Origin: a virus
Lineage: Duplodnaviria > Heunggongvirae > Uroviricota > Caudoviricetes
Virus record (IMG/VR): IMGVR_UViG_3300027631_000003
Length of the DNA stretch: 64,000 bases
Direction: 5' to 3' (one strand)
A model generated the notes under the pieces. It saw only the letters and a program-made list of their open reading frames with translations, was not told the DNA's origin and searched no databases. Positions 48,808 to 49,097 of the stretch are shown here, piece after piece. A program made the position numbers and the translations under genes. The first letter of the stretch is position 1. Each line of letters starts with the position of its first letter.

Positions 48808-48827
48808 TTTCCTTATTATGTTTATAG
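48808..48827 (+). promoter_or_regulatory. Reverse-orientation copy of the early promoter-like motif (TTTCCTTATTATGTTTATAG on the + strand) pointing toward the GC-rich island
   Basis: All other copies read TTTCCTAATTATCTTTAATCTG on the minus (gene) strand. This copy has the same sense on the plus strand. Confidence 0.4.
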
Positions 48828-48916
48828 TGTTGAAACGTTCATTGAAATATTATATTTGTATATACGAGGCGCGGGGTGTAAAATTGTATACGTGTTGAGA
48901 GTGTGTATGGTTAAGA

Positions 48917-49005
48917 CACGGCCCTACCCGCCGCGCGTAGGGACCGCGGCCAGCGTGGGAGCAACCCGCGCACGAGTCGCGGTCGACCCGCTATCGTCCG
49001 TCTCT
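48917..49005. other. ~70% G+C island with three consecutive hairpins (CCCTAC-N9-GTAGGG; GCGTGGG-agcaa-CCCGCGC; GCGG-tcgac-CCGC) in a ~30% G+C genome; candidate structured RNA/terminator cluster/origin element
   Basis: Read directly from sequence at 48922..48942, 48953..48971 and 48979..48991. Flanked by a T-run, CTCTTTTGAGATTTTTTTA. Confidence 0.5.
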
Positions 49006-49012
49006 TTTGAGA

Positions 49013-49097
49013 TTTTTTTAGTACACGCGATTTTTTTGTCATACGCGCGTCTTTTTGTAATACACGCAGACTACCTAACCTTTGTGTAATACGTCAC
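49013..49097. repeat. Four imperfect ~18-20 bp direct repeats (iteron-like): TTTTTT(A)GT(A/C)ATAC(A/G)CGC
   Basis: tttttttagtacacgcga / tttttttgtcatacgcgcg / tctttttgtaatacacgcaga / tttgtgtaatacgtcac, in tandem. Confidence 0.55.

Follow-up and report, generated by a model that had tools for sequence, protein, structure and literature searches.

The locus and its genomic setting

This analysis concerns a GC-rich island of about 155 bp (about positions 48851-49008) in a 64,000-nucleotide stretch of an uncultured tailed phage (Caudoviricetes; IMG/VR record IMGVR_UViG_3300027631_000003), together with a single promoter-like motif that lies beside the island and faces it on the plus strand; the whole stretch is called the window in the following. 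The window has a GC content of about 31%, and all its real-looking open reading frames (ORFs) of at least 100 aa are encoded on the minus strand, here also called the gene strand. The island is found at the junction between a block of small early genes (49.7-62.6 kb), each of which has its own host-type promoter, and the conserved core genes. An initial annotation, made from the window alone, had proposed motif and island as a possible gene of a structured non-coding RNA (ncRNA) of 150-200 nt that ends at an intrinsic terminator.

Neither the island nor the 20 kb around it has a nucleotide match among the 50,697 deposited phage genomes of INPHARED, and the window phage has no close cultured relative. 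At the protein level, the nearest cultured relative is the Flavobacterium phage vB_FspM_immuto (160 kb), with shared proteins that are 40-51% identical, among them a T4-type large terminase (51%) and an HD phosphohydrolase (40%). Both phages have a T5orf172 gene upstream of their HD phosphohydrolase gene, and in the syntenic region of immuto the island was undetectable (nhmmer, E <= 10). The phage family is large, uncultured and myovirus-like. As the promoters resemble the sigma-A pattern described below and the leaders are A-rich and lack a Shine-Dalgarno sequence, the host likely belongs to the Flavobacteriia.

The following features can be distinguished at the locus (positions refer to the window):

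48794..48829, plus strand: reverse-oriented copy of the early-promoter motif, with -33 TTTG, extended TTTCCTTATTA and -7 box TATGTTTA; a putative promoter
48801..48853, no strand: 53-nt segment that is present or absent in alignments of close relatives; holds the -7 box and the predicted start site
48851..48865, no strand: invariant AT-rich box, on the gene strand GTATATACAAATATA, with the palindrome GTATATAC at 48858-48865; 3' end of the element in gene orientation
48866..48925, no strand: segment with a plus strand rich in G and a gene strand rich in C and poor in G; contains the conserved blocks CACTCTCAACAC and TTTACACCCC, as read on the gene strand
48926..48940, no strand: variable GC-rich spacer, sequence not kept, high GC kept (columns 95-117 of alignment A1)
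48941..48962, minus strand: near-invariant boxes, on the gene strand GCTCCCAC (48962-48955) and GCCGCGGTCC (48950-48941)
48967..48995, minus strand: three direct repeats in an 11-nt register, GATAGCG (48995-48989), GACCGCG (48984-48978) and GTGCGCG (48973-48967)
49000..49019, plus strand: small hairpin GUCUC-UUUU-GAGAU followed by U7 (-4.9 kcal/mol), the terminator of the initial annotation
49011..49072, no strand: threefold tandem repeat with units of 19-20 bp, in which GTAnACGCG comes after a T-tract (repeat family D1, about 3 copies)

A conserved, phage-specific element

The GC content is 62% over 48866-49008 and reaches 71% over 48926-49008, compared to about 31% for the genome, and the island that the initial annotation had pointed out is thus real. 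When read on the plus strand, the reverse promoter (20% GC) is followed by an AT-rich tract of 37 nt (22% GC), a G-skewed tract of 60 nt (48866-48925; GC skew +0.47, and +0.31 to +0.56 across the 19 close relatives introduced below), the repeat core with 71% GC, and finally the phased T-tracts.

Related loci were collected via the neighbouring HD protein and by a scan of viral contigs for the island pattern. The pattern GCTCCCAYNNTNGCCGCGRTCC yielded 39 viral loci, and 65 nhmmer matches, one per locus, correspond to 44 distinct sequences from IMG/VR contigs. Alignments of 42 copies served for column conservation and RNAalifold, an alignment of 38 copies for the helix search, and the 19 sequences of clade A for the fold tests. 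Four groups can be recognised: clade A is window-like, with 19 sequences that are 78-95% identical, and clades B, C and D stand further off. Apart from the HD protein, which has an identity of 47-59% in clades B and D (53-59% in B) and gave no match in the loci of clade C, their neighbours are unrecognisable. At the DNA level, the identity of the island's 5' core to clade B is 72-80%. In the 42 copies, the columns of GCTCCCAY, GCCGCGGTCC and TATATAC are invariant or nearly so, those of the boxes at 48941-48962 are invariant or at least 90% conserved, and T159-T163 (TATAT) of the AT-rich box is found in 42 of 42, with flanks that are conserved to 70-90% or more. The orientation of the island relative to the genes is fixed, and in clade B the element takes up exactly the space from the stop codon of one gene, for an acidic protein of 76 aa, to the ATG of the following gene.

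The repeats differ in sequence between clades. Each element has 3-6 direct repeats, and the spacing is 11 nt in 34 of the 54 adjacent pairs across the copies; a repeat finder likewise reported a spacing of 11 nt in three contigs (L033, L065 and L110). The window repeats are degenerate, with only GCG being kept in register, and clean GNTAGCG repeats, 3-5 in number, occur in clades B and C. In clade D, repeats of a TATACGG type take the place of GNTAGCG, and the GCTCCCAY box is unchanged. The tandem units on the other side of the repeats are phased A/T tracts that flank the island. Their first T7 run (49013-49019) is invariant in close relatives, and the whole region is missing in clade B, where an ORF abuts the island.

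The full element was not found by nhmmer in 185,579 bacterial species genomes, in which there were 76 pattern matches, almost all of them in high-GC or unrelated genomes and none to the full element. These were chance matches, and mimicry of a host gene or an attP function was thus rejected. Due to the high DNA identity across clades, the exact filling of the gap in clade B, and the absence from bacterial genomes, the island is regarded as a phage-specific, autonomous, strongly selected, single-copy non-coding element of about 155 bp with fixed orientation.

The early-promoter motif and its single reverse copy

A degenerate consensus, TKTCYWNRYTAHNWTTA, was derived from the minus-strand copies of the early-promoter motif. 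It has 24 matches in the window (0.32 in shuffled sequences), of which 23 are on the minus strand and a single one, at 48808-48824, is on the plus strand. Most of the minus-strand matches (20 of 23) precede small ORFs at 49.7-62.1 kb, and three lie at 11-15 kb. The count of about 25 minus-strand copies in the initial annotation was therefore fair, although its literal 22-mer occurs only 4 times with up to 3 mismatches and 21 times with up to 6. The plus-strand copy, with the sequence TTTCCTTATTATGTTTATAGTG at 48808-48829, is present as had been described. It has the top plus-strand score of a position weight matrix in the 64 kb, yet reaches only 11.6 bits, compared to at least 18 bits for every minus-strand copy, and has a G at one position where the minus-strand copies all have C, A or T.

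The sigma-A pattern of Flavobacterium consists of a -7 box TAnnTTTG at -12 to -5 and a -33 TTTG (PMC9723704). The plus-strand copy carries both elements by which a Bacteroidota sigma-A promoter is recognised, a TTTG at 48794-48797 and, after a spacer of 19 nt, the -7 box TATGTTTA at 48817-48824, which fits TAnnTTTG at 7 of 8 positions and shares its final A with the 23 minus-strand copies; the start site is predicted near 48829. All these copies fit TTG-N19/20-TAnnTTTA followed by TG at about -1/+1, and differ from Bacteroidota sigma-A promoters in the much greater length of the phage motif (with TTTCCTnATTA upstream of the box) and in its final A instead of G. A generic two-box sigma-A pattern occurs at chance frequency in the window (15 matches, 11.2 expected). 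As judged by its agreement with the sigma-A pattern and with the extended motif of the phage itself, the reverse copy proposed in the initial annotation is a credible promoter, which may fire. A second plus-strand -7 box, TATATTTG at 48851-48858, was rejected, as it is the reverse complement of the invariant AT box and has other bases at the TTTG positions in clades C and D.

In seven close relatives (L001, L003, L004, L006, L009, L010, L012) the reverse copy is found by the strict pattern as the sole antisense copy at the same place, starting about 47 nt beyond the island, and altogether 13 of the 19 clade A sequences have the reverse promoter. The others lack the 53-nt segment at 48801-48853, the limits of which are ambiguous owing to an AAAT microhomology: it is missing in L005, L014, L102, L013 and L017, and with another boundary in L107. 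All six keep the island and are spread over at least three island sub-lineages, and in clades B-D the segment is never present. Selection on the island thus does not maintain a transcript from the reverse promoter, which by these alignments is a genuine but lineage-restricted and dispensable accessory, and the alignment suggests that the natural variants without the promoter are equally fit.

The reverse promoter may have no function at all and be the inverted fragment of an early-promoter cassette that drifts in and out by illegitimate or homology-driven recombination. This concerns the promoter only, is compatible with any reading of the island, and is a real possibility, although the balance is somewhat against it. 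The plus-strand copy resembles one particular minus-strand copy, at 55949, including the upstream GGAATTTAAAA, and it is therefore plausible, by analogy with other phages, that it arose by inverted transfer of a promoter cassette. The variable presence of the segment among near-identical relatives, the microhomology at its junction, and the existence of at least two boundaries agree with such an origin. Promoter-mediated shuffling has been documented in T4-type phages (PMC2839356, PMC4122927). The PeSL cassettes in the hyperplastic regions of these phages are similar in that many near-identical early promoters each precede a small ORF in a variable block and give rise to promoter-bearing indel polymorphisms among close relatives (PMC2839356, PMC4122927). 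They differ in that their stem-loop half is not systematic here and that the copy at the island is inverted. The 45-mers upstream of the 23 early promoters have a mean minimum free energy (MFE) of -4.14 kcal/mol (random: -4.25 kcal/mol), with only 3 of 23 at or below -8, and membership in the PeSL class, as composites of a promoter and an adjacent stem-loop, was rejected, as only the promoters are repeated. Two further aspects speak against a functionless by-product. The reverse copy is the sole antisense copy in every carrier, and the 13 carriers keep the -33 and -7 boxes while 3-4 nt between TTTGGAATTT and TTTCC vary, which hints at constraint.

Coding potential and RNA structure

A plus-strand ORF of 109 aa exists at 48760-49089 and had been dismissed as an artefact in the initial annotation, which also saw no other credible ORF on this strand. 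The comparison agrees on both counts: no plus-strand ORF is conserved, and the 109-aa frame is broken in many relatives, has indels of 1 nt and shows no codon-phase bias (26, 24 and 30 variable columns). A 43-aa ORF on the minus strand was rejected as coding for the same reasons.

RNA structure was addressed in several ways. The only Rfam match in the window that passes the gathering threshold is a tRNA, and over 48700-49150 there is nothing credible at E <= 10. The whole 193-nt plus strand folds no better than shuffled sequences (z = -1.35), with z = -1.83 for the minus strand. One local hairpin of the plus strand, at 48940-48990, is strong in this genome (-31.2 kcal/mol, z = -3.4), but its outer stem is broken in 5-8 of the 19 close relatives, as this stem depends on repeat 2 being GACCGCG in this sub-lineage. 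The description of the island as hairpin-rich thus applies to one hairpin and not to the strand as a whole. RNAalifold predicted only 3 pairs with -1.16 kcal/mol in the 42 copies. A search for runs of at least 4 antiparallel columns with pairing in 80% or more of 38 copies revealed no conserved helix of more than 5 bp on either strand; the short runs found were those of the invariant CCGC in GCCGCGG, for which three GCGG repeats are equally good partners, and in the variable spacer 48926-48940 no consistent pairing was seen. When the plus-strand MFE fold was imposed on the 19 clade A sequences, 83.3% of the cells were paired and the covariation was 0.119, compared to 82.7% and 0.118 in shuffled controls; for the gene strand 81.3% were paired in both. 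The covariation analysis that had been proposed as a check of the structured RNA hence gave no signal above shuffles. High-scoring pairs from an all-against-all comparison of columns were scattered, reflect the splits between clades rather than helices, and were discarded.

A terminator scan of 47500-50500 returned 0 sites. Before the T7 run at 49013-49019 there is only a hairpin of 5 bp (-4.9 kcal/mol), the pairs of which (helix 7) are broken in 3-6 of the 19 relatives, and the strong hairpin ends about 25 nt before the U-run. The T-run is also unit 1 of the threefold tandem DNA repeat, and the intrinsic terminator is not supported. An aside concerns the other side of the reverse promoter, where a near-palindrome, AAAATTTGAGATCTTGGATTTT, with the centre AGATCT and A- and T-run flanks is found at 48755-48776, between the promoter and the next GTATATAC box; the equivalent site of relatives has a short GC hairpin followed by AAATTTTA. 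By its sequence, the near-palindrome may be a weak bidirectional terminator.

The island as a probable protein-binding DNA module

Since the primary sequence and the 11-bp spacing are conserved and there is no signal of structure, the island fits DNA better than a structured RNA. Repeats in helical register whose unit is clade-specific, beside boxes that stay fixed, mark an array of protein-binding sites on DNA, and a repeat unit that varies by clade while GCTCCCAY stays fixed is the pattern expected of sites that co-evolve with their protein. The island (about 48851-49008) is a new cis-element of a known general kind. In ParR-parC-type arrays of 11 bp, short direct repeats are bound cooperatively by one protein. 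The island may tentatively be described as a single-copy, cis-acting, protein-binding DNA module that is most like an iteron-bearing, transcription-activated origin, a description that falls slightly short of an even chance.

On such a module, an iteron-type nucleoprotein complex would assemble on the repeats with 11-bp spacing and act as a transcription-activated origin. A transcript from the reverse promoter, if made, would cross the AT-rich box, turn G-rich and enter the repeats, and would act locally, where it opens or primes the origin or collides with the gene-strand box that it meets face to face, rather than as a folded RNA that acts in trans. The evenly spaced cluster of short direct repeats by which iteron origins are recognised is present, although degenerate in the window. 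With iteron origins such as lambda ori and the RK6 gamma origin, the island shares 3-6 short direct repeats in helical register, a clade-varying repeat beside fixed boxes, and an adjoining AT-rich box and bent-DNA tracts. It differs in that the repeat unit makes up only about 7 nt of the 11-nt period, that the carrier is a large phage of virulent type and not a plasmid, and that, in contrast to iteron and ParR arrays, no cognate initiator or ParR-like gene was found alongside.

Among the T4 origins, oriE combines evenly spaced iterons of 12 nt with dependence on an early promoter, and oriF and oriG consist of a promoter and an AT-rich unwinding element with an R-loop primer (PMC3016281). The window phage, which has a T4-type terminase, resembles T4 in evenly spaced direct repeats of 11-12 nt at a syntenic site among related phages, in an early-type promoter that reads in, and in an AT-rich stretch right after that promoter, namely the tract of 37 nt between promoter and island. 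There is no sequence similarity to the T4 origins, the island is GC-rich instead of AT-rich, the promoter is missing in many island carriers, there is no strand switch or skew change at the island, and while origin activity is a prediction here, the T4 iterons are for their part without a proven role.

Several points weigh against an origin. The genes are all on one strand, and neither a change in transcription direction nor an inflection of the cumulative GC skew is seen at 48.9 kb, as is also the case for T4 oriA and oriC (PMC3016281). No initiator gene was found beside the island, the clade B neighbours being the 76-aa acidic protein and a small zinc-ribbon protein. In the six close relatives without the reverse promoter and in clades B-D, the origin would have to be activated by another transcript. 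The T4 oriE iterons themselves have never been shown to function in replication (PMC3016281), and in the clade of the window, where the repeats are degenerate, the repeat finder reported none. Finally, the absence of covariation is still compatible with an RNA that works via unstructured motifs, in regard to which the invariant boxes are neutral.

The repeats and boxes may also be operator or activator sites that control a GTATATAC-type box and the first gene after the early block, as an early/middle master switch. The reverse early promoter, about 30 nt away and facing the box, would in this case add transcriptional interference early in infection. The GTATATAC box is found at 47571, 48716, 48858, 53901 and 57543 in the window, and the copies at 48716 and 47571 lie upstream of the next two genes; the one at 48716 is extended to TTTGTATATACAAA and lies 3 nt before the ATG of the DUF1660 gene. 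In relatives there are 3-4 boxes per 10-20 kb, compared to 0.4-0.8 expected, and in distant relatives the box often occurs in a shared context, ATCGA-N3-GTATATAC-N-TATAT, and in 17 of 52 representative instances an ORF of at least 40 codons begins 1-20 nt downstream. The island always ends with (G)TATATAC-NN-ATATA, and the next ATG in clade B follows 9-12 nt beyond. The recurrence before start codons above chance indicates a recurring control box, which from its sequence contexts may be a promoter element of a second class or an operator, and of which the island would provide the first copy downstream of the early block. The fixed orientation and the position at the boundary of the promoter-dense early block agree with a regulatory array as well. 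On the other side, GTATATAC is palindromic, which leaves its direction unproven, it occurs on no late genes (0-46 kb), its distance to the ATG varies from 3 to 20 nt, no regulator has been identified, and about 100 bp of near-invariant GC-rich DNA would be unusually large for the upstream region of one promoter. A comparison of the invariant boxes by eye with sigma-54 and ECF-type promoter consensus sequences gave no fit. In two relatives (L005, L013), a GTATATAC box lies directly upstream of an early-type promoter.

Short phage antisense RNAs such as lambda OOP and P22 sar, and the convergent-promoter switch pR/pL of coliphage 186, offer a comparison. As in these systems, a lone promoter opposes all neighbouring genes, with a gene-strand control box about 30 nt away; unlike in these systems, the predicted transcript overlaps no coding gene, there is no conserved terminator, and the promoter is dispensable in natural variants. 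By itself the regulatory array is a rather doubtful possibility; it is ranked close second behind the iteron-type origin, as almost as likely, and it is rather probable that one of these two kinds of protein-bound DNA module applies.

Alternatives based on RNA or on DNA packaging

An element that acts on the gene strand as part of the minus-strand transcript is improbable. It could be a leader, a processing site, a Rho-loading tract (C-rich and G-poor) or an antitermination signal at the early/middle junction, or else an unstructured RNA in which repeated AUAGCGG motifs bind a protein. All genes are on the minus strand, the orientation is fixed, the clade B island fills an exact stop-to-ATG gap, and in all close relatives the gene strand of 48866-48925 is a 60-nt tract rich in C and poor in G. 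This tract is missing in clade B, however, conserved structure or covariation was not detected on the gene strand, and the exact 11-nt register of the repeats is better explained by one face of a DNA helix than by RNA.

Even less can be expected of the original proposal, in which a structured plus-strand ncRNA of about 185 nt starts near 48829, ends at the T-run at 49013-49019 and acts as RNA. It can draw on the good plus-strand promoter match, which keeps its position in close relatives, on the U7 run after the small hairpin, on the strong local hairpin, and on a few substitutions in a GUGGGA/UCCCGC hairpin that are tolerated as G-U on the plus strand only (read by eye from alignments A1 and A2). 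Against this stand the lack of an Rfam family, covariation not above that of shuffles, the z-score of the whole transcript, the absence of any helix of more than 5 bp conserved across clades, a terminator that fails the scan and belongs to a DNA tandem repeat, and the persistence of the island without the promoter in six close relatives and all distant clades.

That island and phased T-tracts are a terminase recognition site, or the edge of a long terminal repeat that holds the early genes, is the least probable alternative, as a T4-type terminase is usually linked with headful packaging and no unique site, and as the island is about 8-70 kb away from the nearest contig end in larger contigs. 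Bent DNA beside repeated sites does resemble known pac and cos regions, and many contigs begin 10-860 nt upstream of the island (e.g. L016, L112, L113, L105, L111, L102, L060, L015, L007). These break points are scattered over the whole range, so that a terminal-repeat boundary at the island was rejected. They fit assembly fragmentation at the edge of the hypervariable early block, which is the likely cause of the contig starts, a physical terminus being unlikely. Further contigs that start near the island and run into conserved genes are L003, L009, L101, L040, L036, L017 and L010.

Neighbouring genes

Some observations were made on the surroundings of the island. About 200 nt upstream of the tandem units at 49011-49072, a gene on the minus strand (49273-49638) encodes a protein of 121 aa with four AT-hook-like motifs (LGRPVNP, KRGRPSVP, KRGRPTNP, KLGRPKA). 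It has no match in Pfam or PHROG, is conserved beside the island in clade A, and has weak homologues near the island in L078, L068 and L108; it is a candidate for a protein that binds the phased A/T tracts in their minor groove. The island-abutting 76-aa protein of clade B (6816-7046, plus strand, in contig L033, and its equivalents) is very acidic, ends with ...DFLEEDEDF and resembles a DNA mimic, and in some clade B members the first GATAGCG repeat includes bases of TGATAG, the tandem stop codons of its gene. In the window, the genes that directly follow the island on its downstream side are those of a DUF1660 zinc-ribbon protein (48506-48712, minus strand) and of a T5orf172/MUG113 (GIY-YIG-like) protein (48032-48502, minus strand), and in most clades T5orf172 homologues are found 0.5-4.6 kb downstream.

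Among the small early genes, 2 kb from the island, there is a tRNA-Ser gene (50985-51057, minus strand, anticodon AGA), the sole Rfam/ARAGORN match in the 64 kb. At a larger distance, the GC skew rises to +0.68 at 24001-25000 and to +0.35 to +0.48 at 29001-32000, compared to a negative background, within ORFs of 2063 aa and 1046 aa, the products of which have no Pfam match.

Implications for the phage family

What stood of the initial annotation are the motif copies, the reverse copy among them, the GC-rich island and the artefactual ORF, and what did not stand is the structured ncRNA with its intrinsic terminator. The case calls for caution, as a GC-rich island in an AT-rich phage, a promoter-like motif and a T-run together mimicked an ncRNA gene, for which the comparison gave no structured-RNA support. 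In its most far-reaching form, the interpretation as an origin would make the island, as a GC-rich module with 11-bp iterons, the replication origin of the whole uncultured family of Flavobacteriia myophages, with the reverse promoter, in the lineage of the window, supplying a G-rich R-loop primer for a fork that runs against the genes. This is unlikely as it stands, but if true, it would be a second, sequence-unrelated case of the poorly understood design of T4 oriE, with iterons that co-vary by clade. With another system of this layout at hand, it could become possible to test what the oriE iterons do, for which T4 has so far given no answer.

Should the island prove to be an origin or a site of master regulation, GCTCCCAY-N4-GCCGCGGTCC would be a compact and easily recognised landmark, with which genomes of this abundant uncultured aquatic phage family could be oriented and compared and the edge of the hypervariable early block could be marked, and the clade-specific repeat variants would offer a natural series for finding the cognate binding protein.

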